A DNA stretch of 64,000 bases from Candidatus Binatus sp. (GTDB taxonomy: Bacteria; Desulfobacterota; Binatia; Binatales; Binataceae), in assembly GCF_030646925.1 (NCBI RefSeq), contig NZ_JAUSKL010000004.1:11064-75063 (forward strand), written 5' to 3'. A program made the position numbers and the translations under genes. Positions 47,117-63,187 of this stretch are shown here, one piece after another (position 1 is the first letter of the stretch; each line of letters begins with the position of its first letter). A model generated the notes under the pieces. That model was not told the DNA's origin. It searched no databases and worked only from the letters and a program-made list of their open reading frames with translations.

Positions 47117-48151
47117 GTGGCGATGAAACTGAGGGGCGCAATATCGGGATTCGGCGAGGTCGCGGCAAGGGCTCATCTGCCGGGATGGTGCACGCGCGAC
47201 AACGTGAATATCAGCGCGGTGCACGATCCGGTTGCCGAGCGCAGGCATGAGGCAATTCGGCTGATCAAGAGTGTCCGGGTTTATGACGATCTCCGCTTGA
47301 TGCTCGACGGCGAGGCGGTGGACTTCGTCGATATCGCGAGTCCGCCGGCGCTGCACGCCCGTTCGATTCGCGCGGCGCTCGAGGCCGGCGCGCACGTACT
47401 GGTCGAAAAGCCGCTCTGCCTCGATTTCGGGGAATTCCATCGGTTGAAGCGCCTGGCGGTCGAAAAACGCCGCGTGCTGATGTGCGTGCACAACTGGAAG
47501 TATGCGCCGCCGTATGCGGCGGCGCGGCGCGCGATCGAGCAAGGGCGTCTCGGTGAAGTTTGGTCCATCACGATCGATCGACTGCGCACCGAGCCCGCGG
47601 GCGCGGGCGGCGCTGGCGGCAAGTGGCGAACGTCGTCGGCGTCGGGCGGCGGAATCCTGATCGATCATGGCTGGCACGTTTTCTACCTGATGCACTGGCT
47701 GCTGGGCGGCGCCACACCCTTCTCGATTTCCGCGCGCCTCGAGACGCCGGCTGGTTGCGAGGTGGACGAAGTGGCAAGAGTGAATATCCTGTTTGAGAAC
47801 GGCGTAACCGCGAAGTCCCATCTTTCGTGGCGCGCATCGAGCCGCCGAACGTCGGCGAAAATCCTGGGTGCGCTCGGGCTTATGGTAATAGAAGGTGACC
47901 GGGTCATCCTGAGCAAAATGGACGGGAGCACAGAAGATCTGTCGGCGCCTGACGTCGCCGCCGATTCGTACCATCCGGCGTGGTTCGGCGGCGTGGCCGA
48001 GGAGTTCGAGCAGGCGGTTGCAACAGGTCCCGATTCGATTGTCGCGCGGCAGAATCTTGCCGAGGCCGGCGCGGCGATTGGCATGATCGCGGCTGCACGA
48101 GAATCGGCGACGATTGGCGGCGAGGACGTCGATATGCCGAAGGTAACTTGA
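47117..48151 (+). CDS. Gfo/Idh/MocA family oxidoreductase
   Basis: GAISGFGEVA, VDIASPPALH, HVLVEKPL, GGGILIDHGWH. Confidence 0.9.
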   Translation: MAMKLRGAISGFGEVAARAHLPGWCTRDNVNISAVHDPVAERRHEAIRLIKSVRVYDDLRLMLDGEAVDFVDIASPPALHARSIRAALEAGAHVLVEKPLCLDFGEFHRLKRLAVEKRRVLMCVHNWKYAPPYAAARRAIEQGRLGEVWSITIDRLRTEPAGAGGAGGKWRTSSASGGGILIDHGWHVFYLMHWLLGGATPFSISARLETPAGCEVDEVARVNILFENGVTAKSHLSWRASSRRTSAKILGALGLMVIEGDRVILSKMDGSTEDLSAPDVAADSYHPAWFGGVAEEFEQAVATGPDSIVARQNLAEAGAAIGMIAAARESATIGGEDVDMPKVT

Positions 48152-48374: not shown

Positions 48375-49028
48375 ATGGGCGCATCGCAGGCTAAAGGGAT
48401 CGAGCAACGGGCTGGGTCGCAGGATTCACGCGACGAGATATTGAAAGCCGCGATGCATCTGTTTGCCGATCGCGGATTTCATGAAACCTCGATGTCCGAG
48501 GTCGCGCGCGAGGCGCGGGTCAGCAAGGCGCTGATTTTCTGGCATTTCAAGACCAAGGAAGAGCTGTTCGTCGCGGTGTTGAATCGATTGCTCGAGCCGT
48601 ACGTGATCGATTTTGCGGAAGAGGCGGGGGCCCTGGATGAGCGCGCCCAGATTCAGAAGCTGGTCGAGTTCTATCTGCTGTTCGTGCGTGAGAATGTGAG
48701 TTCGGTGCGTTTCTTCCTGGCGCAGATGCTCCACGATCCGCATCTGTCGGAGAGTCTCAACGAACAAGTGCTGCGGCTCTACAGCGGCTACCGGGATTTG
48801 CTGACCGAGCTGATAGCGCGGTCGCAGGAAAAGGGCATCTGCACTCGCCGTTTCGCGCCCGAGGCGGCGACCAGTTTCCTGCTGTCGGCGCTGAATGGTT
48901 TATTGATCGAACATCTGTTCATGGGCGCCAAAGCGGTGGATTCGGAGGGCGCAGTCGCGATGGTGGGGGAGTGGCTGTTCGGCGACTCGAAGGAACCATC
49001 GCCAGAAGGCGGCAATCCGGCTGCCTGA
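48375..49028 (+). CDS. TetR/AcrR family transcriptional regulator
   Basis: ILKAAMHLFADRGFHETSMSEVAREARVSKALIFWHFKTKEELF. Confidence 0.95.
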   Translation: MGASQAKGIEQRAGSQDSRDEILKAAMHLFADRGFHETSMSEVAREARVSKALIFWHFKTKEELFVAVLNRLLEPYVIDFAEEAGALDERAQIQKLVEFYLLFVRENVSSVRFFLAQMLHDPHLSESLNEQVLRLYSGYRDLLTELIARSQEKGICTRRFAPEAATSFLLSALNGLLIEHLFMGAKAVDSEGAVAMVGEWLFGDSKEPSPEGGNPAA

Positions 49029-49059
49029 TTTTCTGAACGAGTAGAGAGAACATCCAAAG

Positions 49060-50064
49060 ATGCGCATTCCGCTTAGACAGATGATCGATCTCGGCCGGTA
49101 TATCGGTTCCAAAAAGCGCGCGGGCGAGAAATATTTCCCGTTGGTGTTGATGCTCGAACCGCTGCACGCGTGCAACCTCGCCTGTATCGGTTGCGGGCGA
49201 ATCGTCGAGTACAAGGACACGATTCGCGACATGATGACGCTCGACGAGGCGCTCAGGTCGGCGGAGGAAGCGAACGCGCCGATCGTTTCGATCTGCGGCG
49301 GCGAACCGCTGATGTACAAGCATATCGCGCCGCTGACCAAGGGATTGATCGAGCAGCAGAAGCGCCACGTGATGATCTGCACCAACGCGATCCTGCTCGA
49401 GCGCTTCGTCAAACAGGTCGAGCCAAGCCCGTACTTGAGCTTCAATATCCATCTTGACGGGATGCGCGAGACCAACGATCGCGTGACCGATCGCCAGGGT
49501 CATTTCGACATCGTGGTGAAGATGATCAAGATGCTGAAGGAGAAGGGCTATCGCGTGCAGACCAATACGACGGTCTTCCGCGAGACCACCAGCGAGGAAC
49601 TCGAGGACATGATCAAGTTCCTGACGACGCTGAAGGTGGATGGGATGCTGCTCAGCCCGGGCTATCACTACCAGGTGCTGGGCAATGACGAGGTGTACCT
49701 CAAGAAAGAGGAGATGCCTCACAAGTTCATGAAGGTTCGCGACATGGCGAACGACTACAAGATCGTCAACACGCCGATCTACCTCGACTACCTGGTCGGC
49801 AAGCGCGATCTGACCTGCAGTCCGTGGACGACGGTGACGCGCAATCCGCAAGGATGGAAGGGCCCCTGCTACCTGATCACCAACGGGCATTACAAGACGT
49901 TTGAAGAAATGCACGCGGCGACCGATTGGGAATATTACCGGACCAAGCAGGACATCCGATGCCGCGACTGCAAGCTGCATTCGGGATTCGAGGGCACGGT
50001 CGCGCTCGATTTCGGCAAGAACCTGAAAGATTCGTGGCGGATGGTCCGTCACTACGTGGCCTAG
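49060..50064 (+). CDS. hpnH: Adenosyl-hopene transferase (hopanoid radical SAM)
   Basis: FPLVLMLEPLHACNLACIGCGRI, VSICGGEPL, CSPWTTVTRNPQGWKGPCYLI, CRDCKLHSGFE. Confidence 0.93.
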   Translation: MRIPLRQMIDLGRYIGSKKRAGEKYFPLVLMLEPLHACNLACIGCGRIVEYKDTIRDMMTLDEALRSAEEANAPIVSICGGEPLMYKHIAPLTKGLIEQQKRHVMICTNAILLERFVKQVEPSPYLSFNIHLDGMRETNDRVTDRQGHFDIVVKMIKMLKEKGYRVQTNTTVFRETTSEELEDMIKFLTTLKVDGMLLSPGYHYQVLGNDEVYLKKEEMPHKFMKVRDMANDYKIVNTPIYLDYLVGKRDLTCSPWTTVTRNPQGWKGPCYLITNGHYKTFEEMHAATDWEYYRTKQDIRCRDCKLHSGFEGTVALDFGKNLKDSWRMVRHYVA

Positions 50065-50075
50065 AAGAAAAAGCA

Positions 50076-50966
50076 TTGTTCGACCTCGATCGCTATCTGA
50101 AAGAGCGCGCCCAACTGATCGACCGGGAGTTGGCGGCCAGTATCGATGAGCCTCGGGGCGCGGCGGCGCGCCTGTACGAGGCGATGCGCTACAGCTTGCT
50201 CGCGGGCGGCAAACGGCTGCGGCCGGTGCTGGTGCTCGCGTCGTGCGAGGCGGTGGGCGGAAAGATCGAAGCTGCGATGGGACTCGCGTGCGCAGTCGAG
50301 ATGATTCACACCTATTCGCTGATTCATGACGACCTGCCGTGCATGGACGACGACGATTTCCGGCGCGGACGCCCGACCAATCACAAAGTTTATGGCGAAG
50401 CGATCGCGACGCTCGCTGGCGATGCCCTGCTGACCGACGCGTTCGAGGTGCTGGTGCGCAAGTCGCCGGACAGCGCGGAGCCGAGGATCGTGCTCGAGAC
50501 AATCGCGGAACTGGCGAACGCGGCAGGCTCGGCAGGGATGGTCGGCGGGCAGGTGATCGATCTGCTCGGCGAGGGCAAGTCGAAGACGATCGACGAGCTC
50601 GAGGAACTGCACGCGAAGAAGACGGGCGCACTGTTTTTGGCGTCGGTGCGCGGCGGCGCTCGGCTCGGCGGCGCGAACGAATCGCAGATCGAATCGCTGG
50701 ATGCGTACGCGCGGGCGCTCGGCCTCGCGTTCCAGGTCGTGGATGATTTGCTCGACGTGCAAGGCACGCCTGAACAGATGGGCAAGCGCACACAGAAGGA
50801 TCAGGAGCGCGGCAAGGCGACCTATCCGGCGATATTGGGAATCGAACGATCGGTCGATTTGGCGCGCGAACTCGAAAGCAGGGCTAATCGCGCGCTTAAG
50901 GGCTTCGACGCCGGCGCCGAGCCGCTCAGGCATCTCGCGACGTTCGTGGTGGAGCGCAAGCTGTGA
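50076..50966 (+). CDS. ispA: Farnesyl/geranylgeranyl diphosphate synthase (start TTG 50076)
   Basis: AMRYSLLAGGKRLRP, HTYSLIHDDLPCMDDDDFRRGRPTNH, GGQVIDL, KKTGALF, FQVVDDLLD. Confidence 0.93.
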   Translation: MFDLDRYLKERAQLIDRELAASIDEPRGAAARLYEAMRYSLLAGGKRLRPVLVLASCEAVGGKIEAAMGLACAVEMIHTYSLIHDDLPCMDDDDFRRGRPTNHKVYGEAIATLAGDALLTDAFEVLVRKSPDSAEPRIVLETIAELANAAGSAGMVGGQVIDLLGEGKSKTIDELEELHAKKTGALFLASVRGGARLGGANESQIESLDAYARALGLAFQVVDDLLDVQGTPEQMGKRTQKDQERGKATYPAILGIERSVDLARELESRANRALKGFDAGAEPLRHLATFVVERKL

Positions 50967-52027
50967 GCGAGCTGTCGGCAATCGCGATCGGGCATCAGCA
51001 ACCGCGCCAGGCGATGCTGGTCGAGCTGGGGCGTCTCGAGCTGCGCGACTATACGCCGCCGCGTCCCGGGCCCGGCGAGCTGTTGATCGAAGTGCGCTGC
51101 GCGCTTAGCTGCGGCACCGATCTGAAAACATTTCGCCGCGGTCATCCGATTTGGAAACTGCCGACGCCGTTCGGTCACGAATTTTCAGGCGTGGTGGTCG
51201 AAGCCGGCGCGGGCGTGAAGTCATTCAAGGCGGGCGACGAAGTGATGGCGGCGCCGACTGCGCCGTGCGGGATTTGCTTCTACTGCCAACACGGGCAGGA
51301 AAATCTGTGCGCGCTCGCGATGGACAAGATGGTGATGGGCGCGTACGCAGACCTGCTGCTGCTGCCGGCGCACGTCGTCGCGCGCAACACGTTTATCAAG
51401 CCAGTGGGATTGCCGTTCGAGGAGGCCGCGCTGCTGGAACCGCTCTCGTGCGTGATTCATGCGCAGGAAATGGCGCATCCGCAGAAATCGGAATCGGTGC
51501 TGATTATTGGCGGAGGCGCATTCGGCCTGATGCACATGCTCGGGCTGAAAGCGTCGGGGGTGCGCGAGGTAGCGGTGCTCGGACGCGGCGCACAGCGGCT
51601 CAAGTGGGCCGCGGAAATGGGCGCCGACGAGGTGATCGATGCGCGCGGCGACGGTGCGATCGCGGAAGTGGCGCGGCTCAACGGCGGCTTCGGGCCGGAC
51701 CTCGTAATCGAATGCACCGGCCAGGTTCAGGGCTGGGAGGATGCGCTCGCGCGGGTGCGTCGCGGCGGCCGGGTGGTGTTTTTCGGCGGATGTCCGTCCG
51801 GCACGAAGCTCAGCGTCGATACGCGCCGGATGCATTACGACAATCTGACATTGATTGCGCCGTTTCATTCTCGTCCGCGCGACGTGCGGCGCGCGTTTGA
51901 ATTGCTGGCGGCGCGGACGGCGGGATTTGGCGCGATCGTGAATGCGCGGCGCTCGCTCAGCGAACTGGCGGAAGTATTTGCGATGCTCGAGCGCGGCGAG
52001 GTGCTGAAGTGCGCGGTAATTCCGTAG
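50963..52027 (+). CDS. Zinc-dependent MDR dehydrogenase (sorbitol/polyol dehydrogenase-like)
   Basis: CGTD, GHEFSG, CGICFYC...NLC structural Zn, LLEPLSC, GGGAFG; start overlaps the ispA stop. Confidence 0.9.
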   Translation: MSELSAIAIGHQQPRQAMLVELGRLELRDYTPPRPGPGELLIEVRCALSCGTDLKTFRRGHPIWKLPTPFGHEFSGVVVEAGAGVKSFKAGDEVMAAPTAPCGICFYCQHGQENLCALAMDKMVMGAYADLLLLPAHVVARNTFIKPVGLPFEEAALLEPLSCVIHAQEMAHPQKSESVLIIGGGAFGLMHMLGLKASGVREVAVLGRGAQRLKWAAEMGADEVIDARGDGAIAEVARLNGGFGPDLVIECTGQVQGWEDALARVRRGGRVVFFGGCPSGTKLSVDTRRMHYDNLTLIAPFHSRPRDVRRAFELLAARTAGFGAIVNARRSLSELAEVFAMLERGEVLKCAVIP

Positions 52028-52153
52028 CGGTCGTTCGAGGCGAGTCGCGCGCGCATGACAACCGTTGTCAGAGCGCCGGATCGTGTCGGAGGGGCCGCAG
52101 GCAATGCGGGAAGATGGTGGCGGGAGCGGGATGAGGATCAAGCTGGGAGAAAT

Positions 52154-54109
52154 ATGAGTCAGGCAATTTCTATCGACAATATGGCGGCGCTGTCGCCGCA
52201 CGACGAGTTCGTGGCCAAGGTCGATTACACGATCGAACGCGCGCAAAATTCGCTGCTCGCGCTGCAGAAGCCCGAGGGCTACTGGCACGGCGCGCTCGAA
52301 GCGAACGCGGAGATGAACGCCGAGTACATCATCTTCACCCACTTCATGGACACGGTCGATATCGAACTCGAAGCGCGGCTCAAAAAATATCTGCTCGATA
52401 CGCAGAGCGCGGACGGAAGCTGGAGTCTCTTTCCGGGCGGCGAGGGCTATCTGTCGAGCACGATCGAGGCCTACTTCGCGCTCAAGCTGACGGGCATGCG
52501 GGCTGGCGACGAACCGATGGCGCAGGCGCGGCGCTGGATCCTGGCGAAGGGCGGAATCGTGAACTGCGGCACGCTCGCCCGCTTCTACCTGGCGGCGATG
52601 GGGCAGATCACGTGGGACGCGACCGCCGCGCTGCCGATCGAAATCGTGCTGCTGCCGAACTGGTTTCCGATCAACATTTACGAATTGGGATCGTGGGCGC
52701 GCGGCACGCTGATGGCCTTGATGCTGATGCAGACGGCTCGGCCGGCCAAGCAGATCGACTATCAGAGGGGCATCCTGGAGCTGTATATACAGCCGCCGCA
52801 TTTCACGAAGTTCAAGCAGCCGCGCGGCAAGAAGCTGCTCTCGCTGCGCAATTTGCTTAACGTTGGAGATCGGGGACTACGCCTTTACGACAAGCACAAT
52901 GTTGCGTCGCTGCGCGCTAGTGCGATCCGCAAGACGGAAGAATGGATCGTCGACCATCAGGATGAAAACGGCTCGTGGGGCGGAATCGAGCCGTGCTATC
53001 TGCTGAGCGCGATGGCGCTCAAGGCGATTGGCTATCGCAACGATCATCCGGTGCTGAGAAAGGCGATCGCTGCTTCGCGCGAACTCGTCTGGGATTTTCC
53101 GGATAGCGCGCTATACATGCCGTGCGTTTCGCCCAACTGGGACTCGGCGTTGGCGGGGCGCGCATTGCTGGACTCGGGAATTGCGGGAGATCATCCGGCG
53201 CTGCGCAAGGCGGCGTCGTGGTTTATCGATCACCAGATTTTCAATAAGGGCGATTGGTCGGTGAAGCGGCCAGCGCTCGAAGCGGGCGGATGGGCATTTC
53301 AGTTCTACAACGACTCCTACCCCGACGTGGACGATTCGGCGGTGATACTTTCGGTGCTGGCCGAGTCGAGCGTGGGTGACGCGGCGGCGAAAGAACGATC
53401 GATGCGCGCCGGCGCGAACTGGGTAATGGGGATGCAATCGAAGGACGGCGGATTTGCCGCGTTCGATGCCGACAACGATTCGACCTGGATGAATCATTTG
53501 CCGCTCGCGGACGTCGAGGCGGTCACCGATCCCTCGTGCCCCGATCTCACCGGCCGCGTGCTCGACATGATGGCGTCGGTCGGCTATCGGAGCGATCATC
53601 CGGTCGCCAAACGCGCGATCGAATGGCTGAAGCGCAATCAATCGAGCCACGGCGGATGGTGGGGCCGGTGGGGCGTGAATTACATCTACGGAACCTCGTC
53701 GGCGTTGTCGGGCTTGCGCGCGATCGGCGTCGATATGAAGCAGCCGTGGATCAGGCGCGCGGTCGCGTGGCTTAAGTCTAAGCAGAACGCCGATGGCGGA
53801 TGGGGCGAGAGCCCGCTCTCGGACCAGGATCCGGCGTGGCACGGGCGCGGCACGAGTACGGCGTCGCAGACCGCGTGGGCATTGATTGCGCTGGTCGCGG
53901 GCGAGGACGACGTAAGCGAATCCGCGATGCGCGGCGCGCAGTGGCTCTCAGAGCGGCAGAACGACGACGGCGCTTGGGACGAGACGGAGCATACCGGCAA
54001 CGGTTTCCCGAATCATTTTTATCTTCGCTACCATTTGTATGCGCATTATTTTCCGCTGATGGCGCTCGGACGTTTTCGGCGGCGGCTAATGGAACGGTCG
54101 GCGCGTTAG
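52154..54109 (+). CDS. shc: Squalene-hopene cyclase (HpnF)
   Basis: QW repeats (QKPEGYW, QSADGSW, QDENGSW, QNADGGW), YPDVDDSA (DxDD), GWWGRWGVNYIYGT, GNGFPNHFYLRY. Confidence 0.97.
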   Translation: MSQAISIDNMAALSPHDEFVAKVDYTIERAQNSLLALQKPEGYWHGALEANAEMNAEYIIFTHFMDTVDIELEARLKKYLLDTQSADGSWSLFPGGEGYLSSTIEAYFALKLTGMRAGDEPMAQARRWILAKGGIVNCGTLARFYLAAMGQITWDATAALPIEIVLLPNWFPINIYELGSWARGTLMALMLMQTARPAKQIDYQRGILELYIQPPHFTKFKQPRGKKLLSLRNLLNVGDRGLRLYDKHNVASLRASAIRKTEEWIVDHQDENGSWGGIEPCYLLSAMALKAIGYRNDHPVLRKAIAASRELVWDFPDSALYMPCVSPNWDSALAGRALLDSGIAGDHPALRKAASWFIDHQIFNKGDWSVKRPALEAGGWAFQFYNDSYPDVDDSAVILSVLAESSVGDAAAKERSMRAGANWVMGMQSKDGGFAAFDADNDSTWMNHLPLADVEAVTDPSCPDLTGRVLDMMASVGYRSDHPVAKRAIEWLKRNQSSHGGWWGRWGVNYIYGTSSALSGLRAIGVDMKQPWIRRAVAWLKSKQNADGGWGESPLSDQDPAWHGRGTSTASQTAWALIALVAGEDDVSESAMRGAQWLSERQNDDGAWDETEHTGNGFPNHFYLRYHLYAHYFPLMALGRFRRRLMERSAR

Positions 54110-54119
54110 AGCTTGCGCG

Positions 54120-55289
54120 ATGAAAGCGATTTCAATTCTAGGCTCGACCGGTTCGGTGGGCGTGACGACGCTGGACGTCGTCGGCCGCTTCAAGGATCGA
54201 TTTCGCATCGTCGCGATGGCGGCTGGCCGCAACCTGGATTTGTTCGCCGAGCAAGTCAAAGCGTTTCGCCCCGAACTGGTTTCGGTCGCGACGCCGGAAC
54301 TCGCGAAGGAACTCGCTGAACGAATCGGCGGCGAACGCGTGACGATCGTTCATGGACTCGAAGGCGCGATCGCGGTCGCGACGCATCCTGAATCGAAGCT
54401 GGTGATGTCGGCGCTGGTCGGCGCGATGGGACTCAGGCCGACGTTGGCGGCGATCAACGCGGGCAAGGATATCGCGTTTGCGAACAAGGAAGTGCTGGTG
54501 ATCGCGGGCGAGTTGATCACGGCCGCGGTGGAGAAAAATCGCGTGCGCCTGTTGCCGGTCGATAGCGAGCACAACGCGATCTTTCAGTGCCTCGAAGGGC
54601 GCGGCCGCGCCGGGCTGAAGAGAATCATCCTCACCGCGTCGGGCGGGCCGTTTCGCGAACTGCCGGCCGATCGATTCGCGTCGATTACGATCGAGCAGGC
54701 GCTGAAGCATCCGACCTGGACGATGGGCAGCAAGATTACGATCGATTCGGCGACGCTGATGAACAAGGGCCTCGAGGTGATCGAGGCGCGCTGGCTGTTC
54801 GATCTCACCGCGGCGCAAATTTCCGTGGTGATTCATCCGCAGAGCGTGATCCATTCGATGGTCGAGATGGTCGATGGGTCGGTGATCGCAGAGATGGCGA
54901 TTCCCGACATGGCGATTCCGGTGGCGTACGCACTTGCGTATCCGGATCGCTTGCCGATGCCGCATCTGAAGCGGCTGTCGCTGGTTGAAACCTCGAAACT
55001 TACATTTGAAGACCCCGACCTGGGGCGCTTTCCGTGCTTGAGGCTCGCTTATGACGCGCTCGAAGCGGGGCACACGATGCCGGCTTGCCTGAACGCTGCG
55101 AATGAAGAATTGGTGGCAGGATTTCTCGGCGGGAGAGTGCGTTTCGCCGACATCCCGGGGCATCTCGAATCGGTGATGGCGCGTCATCCGAATGCGCCCG
55201 CGCGGACGATCGAGGACCTGCTGGAGACGGACGGATGGGCACGCGCGGCGGCGCGAGAACTGATCGCGGCGAAATCGGTCGCGGCTTGA
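54120..55289 (+). CDS. dxr: 1-deoxy-D-xylulose-5-phosphate reductoisomerase
   Basis: ILGSTGSVG, ANKEVLV, PVDSEHNAIFQ, LTASGGPF, HPTWTMGSKITIDSATLMNKGLEVIEA. Confidence 0.97.
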   Translation: MKAISILGSTGSVGVTTLDVVGRFKDRFRIVAMAAGRNLDLFAEQVKAFRPELVSVATPELAKELAERIGGERVTIVHGLEGAIAVATHPESKLVMSALVGAMGLRPTLAAINAGKDIAFANKEVLVIAGELITAAVEKNRVRLLPVDSEHNAIFQCLEGRGRAGLKRIILTASGGPFRELPADRFASITIEQALKHPTWTMGSKITIDSATLMNKGLEVIEARWLFDLTAAQISVVIHPQSVIHSMVEMVDGSVIAEMAIPDMAIPVAYALAYPDRLPMPHLKRLSLVETSKLTFEDPDLGRFPCLRLAYDALEAGHTMPACLNAANEELVAGFLGGRVRFADIPGHLESVMARHPNAPARTIEDLLETDGWARAAARELIAAKSVAA

Positions 55290-55293
55290 GATC

Positions 55294-56217
55294 ATGGGCA
55301 GCGTGCAAACAAATCCGCAGATCAACCCGGCGTTCGCGCTGGCGTCGATTCCAACGTCGGCGCCGCCGGCTGGTGATTTCGACCTCGTGAGCGCGTATGA
55401 ATTCTGCGCGCGGCTGGCGCGATCGCACTACGAAAACTTCACCGTCGCGTCGTGGCTGATGCCGCGCGAGATGCGGCCGCACATGTACGCGATTTATGCG
55501 TACGCGCGGATGGCCGACGATTTCGCGGATGAGCATCACGATGTCGCGATGCTCGATGATTGGGAGCGGCAACTCGACGGGGCCTACGATGGCACGCCGC
55601 GGCATCCGGTGTTTATCGCACTCGCGGACACGGTGCGCCGCTTCGAAATTCCGCGCGCGCCGTTCAAGAATCTGCTCGTGGCGTTTCGCTCCGACGTAAA
55701 CTTCAAGGGGTTCGACACGCTGGACGATCTGTTCGCGTACTCGCGCAATTCGGCGAATCCGGTTGGTCGGCTGGTGCTCTACCTGTTCGGTTATTGCGAC
55801 GCAGAGCGACAACGGTTGTCGGACCTGGTGTGCAGCGGATTGCAGCTCGCGAATTTCTGGCAGGACGTCGCGATCGATCTGACCAAGGGCCGAATCTATC
55901 TGCCGCGGCGTGACATGGAAAAGTTTGGCGTGAGTGCGGCGGAGCTCGAGGCGCATACGCCGTCGAAGCAATTTATCGAACTGATGCGTCATGAAGTGGG
56001 CGTCGCGCGCGCGATGCTGCTGGAGGGCGGCGAGCTGCATCGCGTCGTGGACAAGCGGCTGCGCCGCGACATCGTGATGTTCGCCGGCGGCGGGCTCGCG
56101 ATCCTGCGCGCGATCGAGCGGGTCGGATACGACGTGGTTCGCGCACGGCCTGAACTCAAGAAATTCGACTATCTCAAACTGGGATGGAGCGCGCTGCGTG
56201 GGCGGCTCGAGGGCTGA
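55294..56217 (+). CDS. hpnC: Hydroxysqualene synthase
   Basis: ARSHYENFTVASWL, YAYARMADDFADE, YSRNSANPVGRLVL, LQLANFWQDV..D..GRIYLP. Confidence 0.92.
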   Translation: MGSVQTNPQINPAFALASIPTSAPPAGDFDLVSAYEFCARLARSHYENFTVASWLMPREMRPHMYAIYAYARMADDFADEHHDVAMLDDWERQLDGAYDGTPRHPVFIALADTVRRFEIPRAPFKNLLVAFRSDVNFKGFDTLDDLFAYSRNSANPVGRLVLYLFGYCDAERQRLSDLVCSGLQLANFWQDVAIDLTKGRIYLPRRDMEKFGVSAAELEAHTPSKQFIELMRHEVGVARAMLLEGGELHRVVDKRLRRDIVMFAGGGLAILRAIERVGYDVVRARPELKKFDYLKLGWSALRGRLEG

Positions 56218-56218
56218 A

Positions 56219-57121
56219 GTGGCGGTCGCGGCATCGGCGTCCTCGAGCGCGCACAACGGCGCTTTGCTGGAAGCGGACTACGAGCGATGCGCGCAAGTGA
56301 CGCGTCGATCGTCGTCGAATTTTTACTACGCCTTCATGCTGCTGCCGGCGGAGCGGCGCCGCGCGCTGCATGCGGTGTACGCGTTCTGCCGTTTCGTGGA
56401 TGACATCGCAGACGATGAATCGGTGCGCGATCCGGCGTATCTGCTGGACAAATGGCGCGACGAATTGGGACGCGTCTACGCGGGCGATCCAACGCGGCCG
56501 GTGTCGCGGGCGCTGGCCGACAGCGTGCGGCGATTCAGGATTCCGCGGCGGCATTTCGAAGATGTGATCGCGGGCGTTGAGATGGATCTCTCGCGCGATC
56601 GCTATCCTACGTTCGAGGAGCTCAGGCTGTACTGCTATCGCGTCGCGTCGGCGGTGGGACTGATTTGCATCGAGATTTTCGGGTACCGGAATCCGTCGGC
56701 GAAATCGTATGCGGAGAATCTCGGTATCGCATTTCAGCTCACGAATATTTTGCGCGACGTGCGGGAAGATGCCGGACGCAAGCGAATTTATCTTCCGCTC
56801 GAAGACCTGAAACGATTCGGCGTCAGCGAGGATGACATCCTGCGCGGCGTCTATAGCGGCAATTTTGTCAGCCTGATGGATTTTGAAGCGAAACGAGCGC
56901 GGCAATTTTACGAACTCGCGCTTGGACAACTTGCTCCAGAAGATCGAGCGACGCTGCTGACGGCGGAAGCGATGCGATTAATTTACGGCGCGCTGCTCGA
57001 GCGGATTATCAAATCGAATTATCGCGTGCTCGATCGGCGTCACAGCCTTTCGGCGCCGCACAAACTTTACCTGGTCGGGCGCGCGTGGGCCGCAAGTCGA
57101 TTAAGCGCGCGGATCGGATGA
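56219..57121 (+). CDS. hpnD: Presqualene diphosphate synthase (alternative start GTG 56198)
   Basis: SSSNFYYAFMLLP, YAFCRFVDDIAD, YCYRVASAVG, AFQLTNILRDVRED. Confidence 0.92.
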   Translation: MAVAASASSSAHNGALLEADYERCAQVTRRSSSNFYYAFMLLPAERRRALHAVYAFCRFVDDIADDESVRDPAYLLDKWRDELGRVYAGDPTRPVSRALADSVRRFRIPRRHFEDVIAGVEMDLSRDRYPTFEELRLYCYRVASAVGLICIEIFGYRNPSAKSYAENLGIAFQLTNILRDVREDAGRKRIYLPLEDLKRFGVSEDDILRGVYSGNFVSLMDFEAKRARQFYELALGQLAPEDRATLLTAEAMRLIYGALLERIIKSNYRVLDRRHSLSAPHKLYLVGRAWAASRLSARIG

Positions 57122-57134
57122 CACTTAATTCCGA

Positions 57135-58508
57135 ATGACCACAACCAATACGATGCCTGGCGCGAAGGATGTGGTCGTAATCGGCGCCGGATTCGCCGGA
57201 CTTAGCGCCGCCGTCGCGCTGGCCAGCAAGGGGTTTCGCGTCGTCGTGCTCGAAGGCAAGCCGGCGCTGGGCGGACGCGCGTATTCGTTCTCCGACGCGG
57301 AGACCGGGGATTTCGTCGATAACGGCCAGCACGTGCTGATGGGTTGCTACAGCGAGACGCTCGATTTTATCGAACAGATCGGCGCGCGCGACAAGCTGGT
57401 ATTTCAGGAGGATCTCGAAATCGAAATGCTGGCCGGAGCGGGACGAAGCGCGCGGCTTCGGACCAGCCGGCTGCCGGGGCCGTTGCATATGTCGGGCGCG
57501 CTGCTCGGTTATGGTCATCTGACGACGCGCGAGCGAGTCGCGGCGATGCGCGCGGGGTTCAAGTTGCTGGCGATGCGCCGGCGCGGAGAGTTGAAGAATC
57601 TGACGGTGTCCGAGTTGATGGATCGGCTCGGGCAGTCGGAAAATGCGCGGCAATGTTTTTGGTATCCGATATCGGTCGCGACTCTGAATGACGAGCCCGA
57701 ATCGTCGTCGGCGGAATTGCTGGCGGAGGTTCTGAAGCGCGCATTTTTTTCGCGCCGCCGCGACTCGGCGTTTGTCTATTCGCGGGTGGGGCTCAGCGAT
57801 CTCTATTGCACGGGCGCGAAACAGTTCATCGAGCGTGCGGGCGGCGCGGTCGAAACGCGGGCGACGGTTGAGATGCTCGAACCGGGTGAGGGCGGAAGAA
57901 TCCAGAGCGTGAGGCTTCGCGGCGGACGGCGAATCGAGGCGTCGAATTTCATCGCGGCGGTGCCGGCGCCCCAGTTGATGCGGCTCTTGCCGGAGAACGC
58001 GGTCGCCAACAATTTCTTCGCGCGGCTGGCGGGGCTGTCCAGTTCGCCGATTATCTGCGCGCACGTATGGTTCGATCGCGAAATCACCGACTCGCCGTTC
58101 GTAGGATTTATCGACACGACTACGCAATGGATGTTCAACAAGCGGCGCATCTTCAGCGAGCGCGGCGAGCAGCATCCGGGGTACCTGAGTTTCGTGATCA
58201 GCGGCGCGCGCAAGCTGATCGATCTGGGCAACGACGAATTGATCGCAATCGTGATGCGCGATCTAAAGCGGATGATACCGGCCGCGGCGGAAGCGAACGT
58301 CGTCAAATGGCTGGTGCTCAAGGAAAAACAGGCGACGATGGCGCCCGACCTGAGTTCGCATGAACTGCGGCCGACGGTCGAGACGCCGATCCCGAATTTT
58401 TTTCTGGCGGGCGACTGGATCCAGACCGGGCTGCCCGCAACGATCGAAAGCGCGGTGATTGCGGGACGCGCGGCAGCAAATGCGATAGTATCGCGGGCGG
58501 GCGGATAA
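57135..58508 (+). CDS. hpnE: Hydroxysqualene dehydroxylase (FAD)
   Basis: IGAGFAGLSAA, LGGRAYSF, VDNGQHVLMGCY, LAGDWIQTGLPATIESAV. Confidence 0.92.
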   Translation: MTTTNTMPGAKDVVVIGAGFAGLSAAVALASKGFRVVVLEGKPALGGRAYSFSDAETGDFVDNGQHVLMGCYSETLDFIEQIGARDKLVFQEDLEIEMLAGAGRSARLRTSRLPGPLHMSGALLGYGHLTTRERVAAMRAGFKLLAMRRRGELKNLTVSELMDRLGQSENARQCFWYPISVATLNDEPESSSAELLAEVLKRAFFSRRRDSAFVYSRVGLSDLYCTGAKQFIERAGGAVETRATVEMLEPGEGGRIQSVRLRGGRRIEASNFIAAVPAPQLMRLLPENAVANNFFARLAGLSSSPIICAHVWFDREITDSPFVGFIDTTTQWMFNKRRIFSERGEQHPGYLSFVISGARKLIDLGNDELIAIVMRDLKRMIPAAAEANVVKWLVLKEKQATMAPDLSSHELRPTVETPIPNFFLAGDWIQTGLPATIESAVIAGRAAANAIVSRAGG

Positions 58509-58511
58509 GCG

Positions 58512-59525
58512 ATGGCGCCGGAAAAAACAAGGACCGCGCTCGTCACCGGCGCCAACGGATTTGTCGGGAGCCACGTTGCGCGCGCGTTGCTGGCGCGCGG
58601 CGATCGCGTGCGGGTGCTGGTGCGCGAGCAGGCTGATCTGCGCGCGCTGGCCGGCCTCGACGTGGAAATAATCCGCGGCGATTTGCGCTACTTCGATTCG
58701 GTCGAGCGCGCGGTCAAAGGATGCGACGAGGTCTATCACGTCGCGGCTGATTACCGGCTGTGGGTGACGGATCCCGCGCCGATGTACGCCACCAACGTCG
58801 AGGGGACCCGGCACGTGCTGCGCGCGGCTGCGGCATCGGGCGTAGTACGAATCGTATATACGAGCACCGTGGGGGCGCTGGGGATACCGCACGGCGGAAT
58901 CGGGAAGGAGGACACGCCGTCCTCGCTCGACGATATGCCGGGGCATTATAAGCGATCGAAATTCATGGCGGAGCAGGAGGCGCTCGCGGCGGCCAAAAGC
59001 GGCGTGCCGGTGGTAATCGTGAATCCTTCAACGCCGATCGGCGCGCTCGATTTCAAGCCGACTCCGACCGGACGAATCATCGTGGATTTTCTGAATCGGC
59101 GGATGCCGGCTTACGTCGAGACGGGGCTGAATTTGGTCGATGTCGAGGACGTCGCGCGCGGCCATCTGCTGGCGGCGGAGCGCGGACGTATCGGTGAAAA
59201 ATACATTTTGGGCGGGGAAAACGTCACGCTCAGGGATTTTCTGGGACGCCTCGCGAGCATTTCGGGACTGCCCGCACCGGTTTTGCGGATTCCGTACGCG
59301 GTTGCGTTTGGCTACGCGCTCGGTGCGGAAGCGTTTGCCCGCGCGGTGACGCGCCGGGCGCCGCGCGCGAGCCTGACCGAAGTGCGGATGTCGCGCAAAC
59401 GGATGTTCTTCGATTCGTCGAAAGCGCAGGCGGAGCTGGGCTACGAGCCCAAGGCGATCGAAGGTGCGCTTCGTAGCGCGATCGAGTTTTATCAGTCGCA
59501 AATTACGTCCAGGAGCGCTGCATAG
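58512..59525 (+). CDS. hpnA: Hopanoid-associated NAD-dependent epimerase/dehydratase
   Basis: VTGANGFVG, HVAADYRLW, HYKRSKF, VNPSTPIG..D.KPTPTG, ERGRIGEKYILG. Confidence 0.9.
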   Translation: MAPEKTRTALVTGANGFVGSHVARALLARGDRVRVLVREQADLRALAGLDVEIIRGDLRYFDSVERAVKGCDEVYHVAADYRLWVTDPAPMYATNVEGTRHVLRAAAASGVVRIVYTSTVGALGIPHGGIGKEDTPSSLDDMPGHYKRSKFMAEQEALAAAKSGVPVVIVNPSTPIGALDFKPTPTGRIIVDFLNRRMPAYVETGLNLVDVEDVARGHLLAAERGRIGEKYILGGENVTLRDFLGRLASISGLPAPVLRIPYAVAFGYALGAEAFARAVTRRAPRASLTEVRMSRKRMFFDSSKAQAELGYEPKAIEGALRSAIEFYQSQITSRSAA

Positions 59526-59528
59526 CCA

Positions 59529-60500
59529 ATGCGTCTGCTGCTACTGACTATTGCGCTGCGTCCGTACGTATTCATTTTCCTGGCGAGTTTTTTACTAATT
59601 GCAATAGTCAATTTCGGAATCCGCACTACTATACTGTTCGGGGTGCTGACTTACGTGGTGTCGCTCGCGTGCGAGTGGTCGTCGGTGCACAACGGGTTCC
59701 CGTTCGGCTTGTATCACTATATCGAGACGACTCGCGGGCGCGAGCTTTGGGTGTTCGGCGTGCCTTTCATGGACTCGCTGTCATTTACGTTCCTGGGCTT
59801 CGCGAGTTACACGGTGGCGTTGCTGCTGAGTGCGCCGCTTTATCGGCGCGGCGCGGACGTGCGGCTGCTCGACACGTGGGAGATACGGCGCGCGCCGCGG
59901 GTGTGGCTGATGGCGGCGCTATTCATGGTCATGATTGACCTGGTGGTCGATCCGCTGAGCGTGCTGGGCGACAGGTGGTTTCTCGGCAAGATTTTCTGGT
60001 ACGACCCGCCGGGGCCTCATTTCGGGGTGCCGATCAGCAACTATCTGGGCTGGTATTTGGTGGCGGCGATCACGATCGCGATTTTCCAGTTCCTCGACGC
60101 GCGGCTGAATCGAAGCGGGGATGCGCCGCAGGGAGCGATGCCGTCGTTGCCGTCGCGCGCGCTGCTCGGGGCGGCGCTTTATTCGGGAATAGTCATTTTC
60201 GGTATCACGATGCTATTTCGAATCGGCGCGCCGAATATAGGATGGGCGGCGGTGTTTATATATTTGCCGTTCCTGGTATTAGCCATTCATATACTCACTC
60301 GGCGGGATTGCTATGGCGACGCCGCCGCGGTCGAGCGCCATCTGAAAGATTTTCCCTATGAGCGTGGCTTGCCGGTGTGGAAGGGCGACGCCGAGAAAAG
60401 GGCACGAGTGTCGAACGGGCCGGGTGCGTTGGCGGGCGATCCAGCACCCTCACCTGCCTCGTCGCGTTCCGCGACTTCGGCTTCCTCTCCCGTAAGATAA
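59529..60500 (+). CDS. CruF/DUF422 'carotenoid biosynthesis' membrane hydratase-like protein
   Basis: EWSSVHNGFPFGLYHY, FGVP, IDLVVDP, WYD..G.HFGVPISNYLGW. Confidence 0.8.
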   Translation: MRLLLLTIALRPYVFIFLASFLLIAIVNFGIRTTILFGVLTYVVSLACEWSSVHNGFPFGLYHYIETTRGRELWVFGVPFMDSLSFTFLGFASYTVALLLSAPLYRRGADVRLLDTWEIRRAPRVWLMAALFMVMIDLVVDPLSVLGDRWFLGKIFWYDPPGPHFGVPISNYLGWYLVAAITIAIFQFLDARLNRSGDAPQGAMPSLPSRALLGAALYSGIVIFGITMLFRIGAPNIGWAAVFIYLPFLVLAIHILTRRDCYGDAAAVERHLKDFPYERGLPVWKGDAEKRARVSNGPGALAGDPAPSPASSRSATSASSPVR

Positions 60501-60614
60501 CGGGCGAGGGAATCAGGACGGAGCGGCGCGGCTTTCAATATATTTGGGGTTGTGACAAGCCGTTGTAGCAAACGTGAATCGTCGATCTTTAATCGGACCG
60601 CAGAGGAAACACAG

Positions 60615-61415
60615 ATGCTGCTAAAAGACAAAGTCGTGTTGGTCACGGGCGCAGGCTCTGGAATCGGACAAGCGAGCGCGATTCGATTTGCGCAGGAAGG
60701 CGCCAAGGTAATGGTCGCCGACGTGCGAGCGGAATCGGCCAGCAACACCGCCGCGATGATCGAGAAGGCCGCGGGCACTGCGAAATCGATCGCAGTGGAC
60801 GTGCGAATCGGGGCGCAAGTCGAGCGCATGGTCAACGAAACGGTCAAAGCGTTCGGCCGGCTCGATGTGCTGTTCAACAACGCCGGCGTGTACGTGCCGA
60901 AGAACGTCGTCGATACCACCGAAGAGGAATGGGACTGGGTGGTGGACGTTTGCATGAAGGGCGTGTTCTTCGGGTGCAAGTACGCGATTCCGCAGATGAT
61001 CAAGCAGGGCGGCGGCGTGATTATCAATACGGCGAGCGGCGCGGGCCTCGAGGGGGTGCCGAATCTCGGCGCGTATCAGGCGGCGAAGGGCGGCGTGGTG
61101 ATCATGTCGAAGGGAATTGCGCTGGATTTCGCGCGGCATCAGATTCGATGCGTTTCGATTTGTCCGGGCGTGATCGAGACGCCGATCGCGGAGAATTGCA
61201 ACCAGGCGCCGGCCGGGAGTTCGTCGCAGGTGTGGGAGCGCACGGGCAATATGCATCCGCTGGGGCGCAACGGAAAGCCGGAGGAGGTCGCGGCGCTGGC
61301 GGCGTTCCTCGCTTCGGACCAGGCGGCGTTTATCACCGGAGTGGCGGTGCCGATCGACGGCGGATTCAATGCGGGCGCGTTCATCCCGCCGAACCGGTCG
61401 CGCGCCTCTTCTTAG
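60615..61415 (+). CDS. Classical SDR oxidoreductase
   Basis: TGAGSGIG, NNAG, YQAAK, CPG, DGG. Confidence 0.92.
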   Translation: MLLKDKVVLVTGAGSGIGQASAIRFAQEGAKVMVADVRAESASNTAAMIEKAAGTAKSIAVDVRIGAQVERMVNETVKAFGRLDVLFNNAGVYVPKNVVDTTEEEWDWVVDVCMKGVFFGCKYAIPQMIKQGGGVIINTASGAGLEGVPNLGAYQAAKGGVVIMSKGIALDFARHQIRCVSICPGVIETPIAENCNQAPAGSSSQVWERTGNMHPLGRNGKPEEVAALAAFLASDQAAFITGVAVPIDGGFNAGAFIPPNRSRASS

Positions 61416-62169
61416 CGGAGGGGAGGTCGCCGTCGTAAGCGATCGCTTCGAGGGCGTCGGCGATAGATTTAGTCGCGCGCCCGAGATTGCGAATCATCTT
61501 GGGCAATTCGAGCACGACGCCGGGATTGCGCACGAAAAAGGAGGTCGCGGCAAGCGGGCGCACGCGGCCCTGCTCGTCGAGCATCTCCGCGCCGGGAACT
61601 TCGTCGTCCACTTCGTCGAGCACGGCGCGAATCGAGATGAATGGAATTCCGCGAACGCTCGCTTCGTCGGCGATAGCGGCGGTTTCCATGTCGACGGCGA
61701 TAGCGCCGGTGTGGTCTTTGGCGCGGCGTTTCTCGGCGGCGCTGATCACGCGATGCATGGTCAGCATCGCGCCGATCGAGTGGCGGAGACCGGCGCGAGT
61801 CAGCGCGCGGCCAGCGTCCTGAAGGTCTGATGCTGCGATCGAATCGACGCGCCGCGCGACTTCGCTGCCGGCGTCGAGCATCAGAATCCGATCGGCGAGA
61901 ACCAGATCTCCGGGCTTGAGACCGGCGGAGAGCGCGCCGGCCACGCCAGTGGCAATTATTTTTTCGGGCTCTGGAACGAGTTCGAATGCGCTGAGCGCGG
62001 TTTCGCGCGCGCGGCGATGCCCGATGCCGTGACCGATCACGGTGAACTGCTTGCCCGCGACGGTCGCGGTGAACCCGTGCAAGCCGTGGTGCGAAATCGG
62101 CGATCGAGGTTTGCAGCGTCGTTTGAACGGCGCGATCTCGCGGGCGAATGCGTAGAAGAGCAGTATCAC
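61381..62169 (-). CDS. hpnG: Purine nucleoside phosphorylase-fold protein, probable adenosylhopane nucleosidase
   Basis: GIG, TGVAGALSAGLKPGDLVL, AVDMETAAIA..RGIPFISIRAVLD, GRVRP; position at the hpn cluster. Confidence 0.75.
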   Translation of the reverse strand: MILLFYAFAREIAPFKRRCKPRSPISHHGLHGFTATVAGKQFTVIGHGIGHRRARETALSAFELVPEPEKIIATGVAGALSAGLKPGDLVLADRILMLDAGSEVARRVDSIAASDLQDAGRALTRAGLRHSIGAMLTMHRVISAAEKRRAKDHTGAIAVDMETAAIADEASVRGIPFISIRAVLDEVDDEVPGAEMLDEQGRVRPLAATSFFVRNPGVVLELPKMIRNLGRATKSIADALEAIAYDGDLPSAKKRRATGSAG

Positions 62170-62326: not shown

Positions 62327-63187
62327 TTGAAGCGGCTGATCGTCAATGGTGACGACTTCGGCCGGTCGCCGGAGATCAACGCCGGCATCGTGAGAGCGCA
62401 TCGCGAGGGAATCCTGGGCAGCGCGAGCCTGATGGTCGCAGAGCCGGCGGCGCGCGAGGCAGCCGAGTTGGCGAAGAGCAATCCTGCGCTCGACGTCGGG
62501 CTGCATGCGGTGGTGTGCCGGGGGCGGAGCGTGCTGAATTCGTCGCGGCTCGCGGGCGCTGTCGGCGACTCGGGCGAGTTTATCGAGAGTCCGGTTACGG
62601 CGGGGATGCGATATTTTTTCGACCGCTTGCTGCGGGCGAAGATGCGCGATGAATTGCGGGCGCAAGTCGAGCGGCATCTTGAGTTGATTGGATACTTGAA
62701 TCACATCGATGGCCATCTGAACTTTCATGTGCATCCGTTGGTCGCCGACATCCTCGTGGAGCTTGCAGTCGAGTACAAAGTGCCGTGTATCCGGTTGCCG
62801 CGGGAGCGCGTGATGACGACGCTTAGGTTGCGGCGCGATCATGCGGCGCGAAAATTGATCGAGTCGGTAATTTTTCGGACGCTCTCGAGGCGCACGCGCC
62901 GATTGATGGCCGAGCGAGGACTCAAATCGACGGATGCGCTCTTCGGACTGCATCAGAGCGGGCATCTGAGCGAGGACTACGTCGTGGGCGTGATCGAAAA
63001 ATTGCGCGACGGCGCGACCGAACTCTATTTTCATCCGGCGGCCGATGTAGGCGGCGTTCCTCCGCCGGCCGAGGCGCAGCTTGAGGTCGAAATTCTCACC
63101 AGCGCGCGCGTTCGCGAGTCGATCGATCGGCGCGCAATCAAGTTGATCACGTTCGCGGAGTTGGGAAGAGGGGAAGGAGAGGAGTAA
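62327..63187 (+). CDS. hpnK: ChbG/HpnK (YdjC) family deacetylase
   Basis: LIVNGDDFG, SASLMV, VGLH, HIDGHLNFHVHP, GLHQSG, ELYFHP. Confidence 0.8.
   Translation: MKRLIVNGDDFGRSPEINAGIVRAHREGILGSASLMVAEPAAREAAELAKSNPALDVGLHAVVCRGRSVLNSSRLAGAVGDSGEFIESPVTAGMRYFFDRLLRAKMRDELRAQVERHLELIGYLNHIDGHLNFHVHPLVADILVELAVEYKVPCIRLPRERVMTTLRLRRDHAARKLIESVIFRTLSRRTRRLMAERGLKSTDALFGLHQSGHLSEDYVVGVIEKLRDGATELYFHPAADVGGVPPPAEAQLEVEILTSARVRESIDRRAIKLITFAELGRGEGEE

Follow-up and report, generated by a model that had tools for sequence, protein, structure and literature searches.

What is a zinc-dependent alcohol dehydrogenase doing in the middle of a hopanoid operon? This question is raised by a 64,000-nucleotide stretch of DNA from Candidatus Binatus sp. 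(Binataceae, Binatia; RefSeq assembly GCF_030646925.1, contig NZ_JAUSKL010000004.1, positions 11,064 to 75,063), hereafter the window, in which a gene for a zinc-dependent medium-chain dehydrogenase/reductase (MDR) lies between ispA and shc, the genes for farnesyl-diphosphate synthase and squalene-hopene cyclase (SHC). It bears on the formation of bacteriohopanetetrol (BHT), which together with its derivatives is a major geochemical biomarker. According to a 2025 Geobiology study, the enzyme that turns ribosylhopane into BHT "has not yet been established" (PMC12583986), and a 2026 review draws the step as unassigned (PMC13459092). An earlier note on the window had rightly described the step as lacking an assigned gene and had proposed the MDR for it. 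NADPH-dependent reduction of ribosylhopane in cell extracts is attributed to Bodlenner et al. (2015), as cited in PMC12583986, and the alphaproteobacterial survey in the same study (hpnH in 48 genomes) gave no candidates near the hpn clusters beyond hpnA, hpnB, hpnL, and hpnM. We found that the MDR, here called A-type, belongs to a module with a second dehydrogenase, called B-type, and that it was moved away from this partner into the operon. The reading that we favor, with a probability of roughly 0.45, is that the A-type MDR is a predicted NADPH-dependent carbonyl reductase of a sugar-like substrate, paired with B and accessory in the extended-hopanoid synthesis of this lineage.

The gene and the parts of its product that bear on the assignment are as follows (coordinates are window positions unless a contig is named).

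50963..52027, plus strand: A-type Zn-dependent MDR gene, intact open reading frame with a GTG start, 354 aa
50963..50966, plus strand: GTGA start/stop overlap of ispA and the MDR gene; ispA stop at 50964-50966, GGAG 8 nt upstream
50963..51013, plus strand: N-terminal extension of about 16-17 residues, Binataceae-specific and poorly conserved
51107..51121, plus strand: SCGTD, with catalytic zinc ligand Cys50 and proton-relay Thr52; invariant in the family alignment
51173..51184, plus strand: GHEF, with catalytic zinc ligands His72 and Glu73; invariant in family alignments
51266..51310, plus strand: structural zinc lobe, with Cys102, Cys105, Cys108, and Cys116; all four Cys invariant
51431..51451, plus strand: LLEPLSC, with Glu159-Pro160 at the fourth zinc ligand position, polyol-dehydrogenase type
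51575..51598, plus strand: VLGRGAQR, end of Rossmann strand beta-2; Arg present, acidic residue absent
51863..51877, plus strand: FHSRP, family motif FHxTP with T304R fixed in the clade (Binataceae against 96 other A-type sequences)

The zinc ligands of sorbitol dehydrogenase type that the earlier note had recognized were confirmed as C50, H72, E73, and E159 in an intact frame. Together with GroES-like catalytic and Rossmann domains, this Cys/His/Glu site and the structural Cys4 lobe place the protein in the MDR superfamily; the Pfam domains ADH_N (PF08240, 91 bits) and ADH_zinc_N (PF00107, 77.6 bits) both exceeded their cut-offs, and the cofactor motif GGGAFG occupies residues 183-188. The top sequence and fold matches were L-threonine 3-dehydrogenase (TDH), sorbitol dehydrogenase (SDH), ketose reductase, (2R,3R)-butanediol dehydrogenase (BDH), xylitol dehydrogenase, and arabinitol dehydrogenase, which assigns the protein to the polyol/threonine dehydrogenase branch. 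The substrates of all characterized structural neighbors are secondary alcohols or ketones with other oxygen functions next to them. An AlphaFold2 model of the MDR had an overall pLDDT of 93.2 and matched MDR structures with TM scores of 0.86-0.89. Structures of TDH, SDH/ketose reductase, and BDH (2dfv, 1pl6, 1e3j, 6ie0) have the fold of the MDR and its Cys/His/Glu(+Glu) zinc site; the structural zinc lobe is as in TDH, and the NADP-type loop resembles that of the whitefly ketose reductase 1e3j. However, the identity to TDH, SDH, and BDH is 23-29%, and the motifs of the A-type family (CGTDLKxxRRGHP, FGGCxxGT, and FHxTP) differ from theirs.

The best match in sequence (E 3e-40, full length) as well as in fold (TM 0.86-0.89, about 30% identity) was 4ej6/4ejm, a putative zinc-binding dehydrogenase of Sinorhizobium meliloti 1021, which has the same zinc ligands and, like the MDR, no acidic residue at the end of beta-2; its ILSTRQATKRR stretch aligns with VLGRGAQR. 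By the usual Rossmann rule, this beta-2 end predicts that the A-type MDR prefers NADP(H). None of the NCBIfam equivalog models was reached. The best of them, TDH, scored 139-140 bits against cut-offs of 458 (TIGR00692) and 380 (NF003808), so that the MDR does not qualify as an L-threonine 3-dehydrogenase, and the scores for IolM (128 vs 450 bits), IdnD (88 vs 469), and GatD (91 vs 550) also fell short. The name sorbitol/L-iditol 2-dehydrogenase, which relatives carry through automatic JGI annotation, was rejected, as no equivalog was reached and the identity to SDH structures is 28%.

In Binataceae, the gene is tightly bound to its upstream neighbor. Its GTG start and the ispA stop have the four nucleotides GTGA in common, leading to translational coupling, and about 42 Binataceae loci have the junction ...GAGCG.AA..TGTGA... 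without variation, so that the start/stop overlap noticed earlier in the window is a property of the whole family. In these loci, each indel within the 16-residue N-terminal extension has a length divisible by three, and the frame is open throughout. Because the junction is invariant, the indels come only in threes, and the frame is always open, the overlapping GTG start is used; a downstream start at M18 was ruled out by the same indel and frame evidence. Sister A-type proteins lack the extension and begin at the MLxxLLxPG position. In the AlphaFold2 model, residues 1-11 have pLDDT values below 50 and are predicted to be disordered, which gives no support to the extension being a membrane-anchoring amphipathic helix.

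On the downstream side, shc starts 27 nt past the MDR stop. The order ispA-MDR-shc was found in 41 of 41 public-genome Binataceae loci (L004-L044), wherever the contig extends, and in eight of nine additional genomes of this family; the remaining one has MDR and shc on separate contigs, with shc at a contig end. The placement between ispA and shc inside the hopanoid operon, which had been read from one genome, is therefore conserved, and both this co-directional placement and the coupling with hpn genes make the MDR gene a member of the operon. Among Binataceae loci, the MDR identity is 66-87%, and its ratio of nonsynonymous to synonymous substitutions (dN/dS) is about 0.20 compared with 0.05-0.21 for its neighbors, indicating purifying selection slightly weaker than on most of them.

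Where did the gene come from? In most genomes, A-type genes stand directly beside a second Zn-MDR gene, the B-type, and A and B proteins are 27-31% identical. Binataceae MDRs form one tight cluster at 50% clustering, with the next relatives at most 49% identical. In the tree, they constitute a clade with support of 100 that groups with the A-type genes of other Binatia families (SH-aLRT 80); the A clade has an SH-aLRT of 100, and the family-invariant residues and motifs are kept, which identifies them as A-type. In the other Binatia families, the A-type gene is not near shc but follows a divergently oriented Nudix gene and precedes B (Nudix-A-B). No B-type gene adjoins the MDR gene in the window. 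The remainder of the old locus lies on contig C33 of the same genome (G000).

C33:49973-50407, minus strand: Nudix gene, small, divergent from B
C33:50531-51559, plus strand: B-type MDR gene, 57% identical to sibling B genes, with GroEL synteny

Between these two genes are 123 bp where A sits in other Binatia families, and A is gone. Since the old locus keeps Nudix and B without A, and Binataceae A groups with genes of the Nudix-A-B arrangement, A was relocated from there to its place between ispA and shc in the ancestor of Binataceae. All nine other Binataceae genomes have retained B (71-88% identity), far from A, and B occurs in none of the 27 A-lacking Binatia genomes; the two genes were gained and lost together across the class. 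Because they are phyletically inseparable, A and B appear to act as one functional unit even when apart, and the B gene kept elsewhere in the genome points to a retained ancestral pathway. By the sequence rule only, the partner is NAD-type, as it has IIGADLF (with Asp) where A-type has VLGRG (Arg, no Asp). Binataceae thus present a clean case in which one gene was excised from a two-gene module and wired into a lipid operon by translational coupling while its partner persists elsewhere.

A metagenome scan with the A-type alignment gave 80 loci, about 48 of them with B adjacent; two of the 80 were Binataceae operons, and two were acidobacterial-type loci beside hpnA and squalene synthase. A small Cupin_2 gene (about 125-190 aa) lies close to A/B in 16 of these loci and directly after B (A-B-cupin) in 12. 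The A/B MDR module is a widespread two- or three-gene unit. A conserved third gene that would reveal its ancestral pathway was sought among Nudix (in Binatia), cupin, acetoin-dehydrogenase-like E1/E2, and LysE genes (8 loci), but no single consistent context emerged.

A hopanoid connection of this family also exists in a second phylum. In Acidobacteria, Sinninghe Damste et al. (2017, Front Microbiol 8:968, PMC5462960) described ug2, a zinc-binding alcohol dehydrogenase of about 350 aa that precedes hpnC-D-E, and ug1, a second such dehydrogenase, which follows hpnA-hpnG; the two correspond to an A/B pair. Named Acidobacteriota proteins that we looked up are encoded in the order ispH-hpnA-B-A-sqs, followed in one complete genome by shc. 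Like the Binataceae MDR, ug2 is a member of the A-type family (37-41% identity), has about 350 aa and a predicted NADP-type loop, and lies among squalene/hopanoid genes. In Acidobacteria, however, A stays joined to B (hpnA-B-A-sqs/hpnC), whereas in Binataceae A alone moved (ispA-A-shc), B remained at the Nudix locus, and the MDR carries the additional disordered N-terminal extension. The acidobacterial A genes belong to the A family in a subclade other than that of Binatia, and the B genes beside them group within the B clade (support 98); there were thus at least two independent entries of the module into isoprenoid/hopanoid operons. Two independent recruitments along with the tight coupling in Binataceae are hard to ascribe to chance, and the A/B pairs inside acidobacterial hopanoid clusters make a lineage-specific link with hopanoid/isoprenoid lipids credible. 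The operon MDR is thereby placed in a definable dehydrogenase module that found its way into the hopanoid clusters of two phyla on separate occasions. While the hopanoid-cluster Zn-MDR of ug2 type has been known since 2017, the relocation of A away from its partner gene is newly documented.

Is the A-type MDR then the missing ribosylhopane reductase of hopanoid producers in general? In our sample of 608 genomes, mainly from one class, 19 of the 51 SHC-positive Binatia genomes had no A-type gene, and 18 of these lacked any homologue at E ≤ 1e-45. HpnH scored over its cut-off in 16 of the 18, and HpnI also did so in six. The hopanoid clusters (shc-hpnC-D-E-hpnG-hpnH) of A-lacking Binatia genomes hold no MDR. 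Furthermore, both BHT and BHT cyclitol ether are made by Chloracidobacterium thermophilum, which lacks ug2 (PMC5462960). Because co-occurrence largely fails in Binatia and C. thermophilum makes BHT without the gene, the A-type MDR is not the general ribosylhopane reductase, and such a role is excluded. The phyletic pattern that the earlier note had expected, co-occurrence with hpnH and hpnG, was largely contradicted, in both directions, by the 16 SHC- and HpnH-positive genomes without a homologue and by SHC-negative genomes with A. Its proposal for the operon MDR survives in the hopanoid linkage, the predicted NADP-type loop, and the BHT-consuming genes of the genome, but not in its general form. 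The field for the unassigned BHT-forming step is narrowed accordingly.

The reading stated at the outset assigns the enzyme a more limited role. The A-type MDR would be an NADPH-dependent reductase of a keto or aldehyde group on a polyhydroxylated, sugar-like substrate, and it has probably stayed in a common pathway with the NAD-type B enzyme. An oxidation followed by a reduction, carried out by an NAD-type and an NADP-type enzyme, is the classical design for epimerizing or isomerizing a polyol through a keto intermediate. In Binataceae and Acidobacteriota, its substrate may be the ribose-derived C5 side chain (ribosylhopane/BHT) or a precursor of a sugar or cyclitol head group, and the step would be accessory and lineage-specific rather than the universal reduction of ribosylhopane to BHT. 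A substrate in extended-hopanoid synthesis is suggested because A was inserted in a tight hopanoid operon and A/B occurs independently in acidobacterial clusters.

Several observations weigh against this reading. Of the 29 SHC-negative Binatia genomes, 11 have the A-type gene, and a family without SHC in another part of the phylum has the A/B module; because of these SHC-negative carriers, a hopanoid cannot have been the ancestral A/B substrate. Within Binatia, A and SHC were associated with a p value of 0.04 when Binataceae were counted, but not significantly without them (Fisher p = 0.23). In both phyla, the gene adjoins genes of the early pathway (ispA, shc, sqs/hpnC, ispH) and not hpnG or hpnH. 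Some A/B pairs lie beside genes for acetoin-dehydrogenase-like E1alpha/E1beta/E2 (six loci, mostly in B-A order) or a cupin gene (loci of the cupin and acetoin contexts include L085, L087, L096, L098, L100, L113-L118, and L127), and such contexts indicate that the A/B family is functionally heterogeneous. Finally, nothing in the Binataceae copy clearly points to an altered active site, and a non-hopanoid ancestral function may therefore simply be kept. All family-invariant residues (K55, H72, E73, H291, Y292, H302, and RRGH at 58-61) are present, and the only clade-fixed changes at conserved family positions are T304R, T49S, and G167A relative to the 96 other A-type sequences. The Binataceae stem is long (0.46). 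Accelerated evolution or neofunctionalization after the move was nevertheless considered and rejected: the root-to-tip distances (about 0.74 vs 0.56-0.67) and the identity of the MDR to sibling orthologues (46-51%) are similar to those of SHC and HpnH between the same genomes, and T304R is the single notable change at a conserved site. As the invariant residues are kept and the divergence is like that of SHC and HpnH, neofunctionalization is not claimed.

These points lead to the competing view that holds up best, although we consider it rather unlikely: the MDR may be a passenger in the operon, with A keeping an ancestral role together with B on a soluble polyol, ketose, or sugar phosphate and a neutral rearrangement having been fixed, so that no hopanoid substrate is involved. 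The phyletic coupling of A and B, with B in all Binataceae, agrees with this, as do the conserved active site, the module in SHC-negative genomes, and a divergence from sibling orthologues no greater than for SHC and HpnH. Relatives with 40-57% identity also lie in non-hopanoid contexts, namely beside Nudix, cupin, ribulose-phosphate epimerase and HPS-like, acetoin-dehydrogenase-like complex, and sigma-54 regulator genes. A mere passenger, however, would hardly be expected in the middle of a tight operon with a 4-nt start/stop overlap that is invariant family-wide and under purifying selection, and the independent recruitment to an acidobacterial squalene/hopanoid operon would be an unlikely coincidence.

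The next alternative depends on the other genes of the operon and of the BHT pathway in this genome, which are as follows.

48375..61415, plus strand: hopanoid super-operon of tetR, hpnH, ispA, MDR, shc, dxr, hpnC, hpnD, hpnE, hpnA, cruF-like, and short-chain dehydrogenase/reductase (SDR) genes, assigned by Pfam and NCBIfam
47117-48151, plus strand: GFO/IDH/MocA-family oxidoreductase gene, just upstream of tetR
49060..50064, plus strand: hpnH, adenosylhopane synthase (TIGR03470, 384 bits vs cut-off 225)
49926..50966, plus strand: ispA, farnesyl-diphosphate synthase, longest open reading frame (NF045485 FPPsyn, 375 bits vs cut-off 275)
52055..54109, plus strand: shc, squalene-hopene cyclase (TIGR01507, 722 bits vs cut-off 431)
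58512-59525, plus strand: hpnA (TIGR03466, 462 bits vs cut-off 368)
59529-60500, plus strand: gene for a CruF/Caroten_synth-like (PF04240) membrane protein, 3 nt after hpnA
60552-61415, plus strand: classical SDR gene, last of the operon (NF005559 'glucose 1-dehydrogenase' subfamily, 240 bits vs cut-off 215)
61381..62169, minus strand: hpnG-like nucleosidase/phosphorylase gene, position conserved in Binataceae loci (TIGR03468, 97 bits, below cut-off 187)
62327..63187, plus strand: hpnK, YdjC-type deacetylase (TIGR03473, 252 bits vs cut-off 232.6)
C23:84962-87642 of G000, outside the window: hpnJ and hpnI, adjacent (HpnJ 714 bits vs 578, HpnI 316 vs 310)

The gene order of the super-operon is conserved in Binataceae loci and is followed by the convergent hpnG-like gene and then hpnK. 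Promoter-like sites were found upstream of tetR only, and the promoter/terminator scan revealed nothing above chance inside the operon. Since hpnJ and hpnI are on C23 and the window has hpnK, the BHT cyclitol ether branch is encoded in full, and because HpnI, HpnJ, and HpnK consume BHT, the genome needs BHT.

A lineage-restricted form of the earlier proposal is conceivable on this basis, in which the A-type MDR would reduce the open-chain aldehyde of ribosylhopane to BHT with NADPH while other producers use a non-orthologous reductase. We regard such a role as possible but unlikely. It would fill a step without an assigned enzyme (PMC12583986, PMC13459092) in a genome that encodes HpnH, an HpnG-like protein, HpnI, HpnJ, and HpnK and so requires BHT. 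The position of the gene inside the operon and its coupling to ispA, the double recruitment of the A-type family to hopanoid clusters, and a predicted NADP-type loop matching the NADPH dependence of the cell-free activity (Bodlenner 2015, as cited in PMC12583986) are in its favor, and ribosylhopane, a 5-substituted ribose, is a plausible substrate for a sugar-type reductase. These arguments are countered by the 16 SHC- and HpnH-bearing Binatia genomes (six with HpnI) that have neither A nor an MDR in their clusters, by the synthesis of BHT and BHT cyclitol ether in C. thermophilum without ug2 (PMC5462960), and by the survey around the hpn clusters of 48 hpnH-bearing Alphaproteobacteria, which gave no such candidate (PMC12583986). 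Moreover, the nearest characterized relatives handle secondary alcohols and ketones and not aldoses, and the persistent B partner together with the conserved active site favors an ancestral function. There are also three other oxidoreductases in the operon, including the SDR beside hpnG.

With A alone in Binataceae and A plus B in Acidobacteria, the module might perform a lineage-specific last step of BHT formation or, as a pair, set the stereochemistry of the tetrol side chain, both of which we think improbable. If this were true, a reductase of ribose-like sugars would have been the pre-adapted starting point of the module, ribosylhopane being freed by a nucleosidase-type enzyme in the manner of 5-deoxyribose, and such pre-adaptation would explain both its occurrence in hopanoid-free bacteria and its double recruitment to hopanoid operons.

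A role early in the pathway, on an isoprenoid precursor or a prenyl alcohol or aldehyde (farnesol/farnesal salvage or a sugar phosphate of the methylerythritol phosphate (MEP) pathway), is very unlikely. The neighboring genes are in line with it (ispA, shc, and dxr here, ispH and sqs in Acidobacteriota, and hpnC-D-E after ug2; PMC5462960), but the invariant pocket residues are polar or basic (K55, H291, Y292, H302, and RRGH 58-61), unlike those of prenol dehydrogenases, the MEP pathway needs no such step to be complete, and many A/B-bearing genomes have no isoprenoid linkage. Least probable is an oxidative tailoring of the ribosylhopane hemiacetal to the lactone, as by archaeal MDR glucose dehydrogenases. 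The product, ribonylhopane, is a known natural hopanoid, and the Glu_dehyd_C match exceeds its cut-off (46.5 vs 34.9 bits), yet it extends over the generic cofactor domain alone. Moreover, reduction is the favored direction for an enzyme with an NADP-type loop in a biosynthetic operon, and the structures closest to the MDR are those of TDH, SDH, and BDH instead of glucose dehydrogenases.

Other oxidoreductases of the operon compete for the missing step. HpnA (TIGR03466, 'hopanoid-associated sugar epimerase') is, like the MDR, an NAD(P)-dependent oxidoreductase that travels with hopanoid genes, and it is suspected of a role in BHT formation; it differs from the MDR in its extended-SDR fold and in a distribution in Binatia that does not track A/B. 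A functional triad of HpnA, A, and B was rejected for this reason, as HpnA exceeded its cut-off only in one other family (f4) and in Binataceae. The classical SDR, an aldose-C1-type oxidoreductase beside hpnG, is a candidate for redox chemistry on ribosylhopane that equals or surpasses the MDR. Its gene, which is convergent with the adjoining hpnG-like gene, is conserved among Binataceae loci. The GFO/IDH/MocA-family oxidoreductase gene, of sugar type, is kept at the same place in almost all Binataceae loci (53-77% identity) and travels with the operon. HpnA, the SDR, and the GFO/IDH/MocA-family oxidoreductase are equally good putative candidates for the missing reductase.

Some further features of the operon were observed. 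The longest ispA frame opens with TTG at 49926 and shares 139 nt with the 3' end of hpnH. Translation of ispA probably begins farther downstream, past the hpnH stop; no ATG or GTG start codon was found in the stretch just behind that stop (50046-50120). The hpnG-like gene is the sole HpnG candidate in the genome and evolves faster than its neighbors (43-78% identity within the family); its product is either a divergent HpnG or, possibly, a nucleosidase instead of a phosphorylase. The cruF-like gene is present in all Binataceae operons (73-89% identity), carotenoid genes are absent nearby, and its product may be a tailoring enzyme of hydratase type acting on hopanoids or squalene. In other Binatia families (L073-L078), we found a minimal cluster of shc-hpnC-hpnD-hpnE-hpnG-hpnH that lacks ispA, hpnA, cruF-like, SDR, and MDR genes, with dxr present in L078 as well. 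Compared with it, the super-operon of Binataceae is derived, a consolidation into which genes for precursor supply were drawn as well.

One more MDR gene beside shc was noticed in another lineage of the phylum (L072 in genome G027). This B-like gene, 575 bp away from shc, overlaps a gene for a DeoC-type aldolase by 4 nt and is thereby coupled to it. The sister genome G066 lacks the B-like gene, whose proximity to shc was judged coincidental. In two long-read metagenome-assembled genomes (MAGs; L044 and L046), the operon carries split or frame-shifted MDR, shc, and hpnH genes, which resembles assembly indel error and not pseudogenization. Contigs labeled Candidatus Acidiferrales/Acidoferrum (L035 and proteins P0070 and P0088) bear a Binataceae-type tetR-hpnH-ispA-MDR arrangement with 76% identity to the window and are probably Binataceae contigs mis-binned into acidobacterial MAGs.

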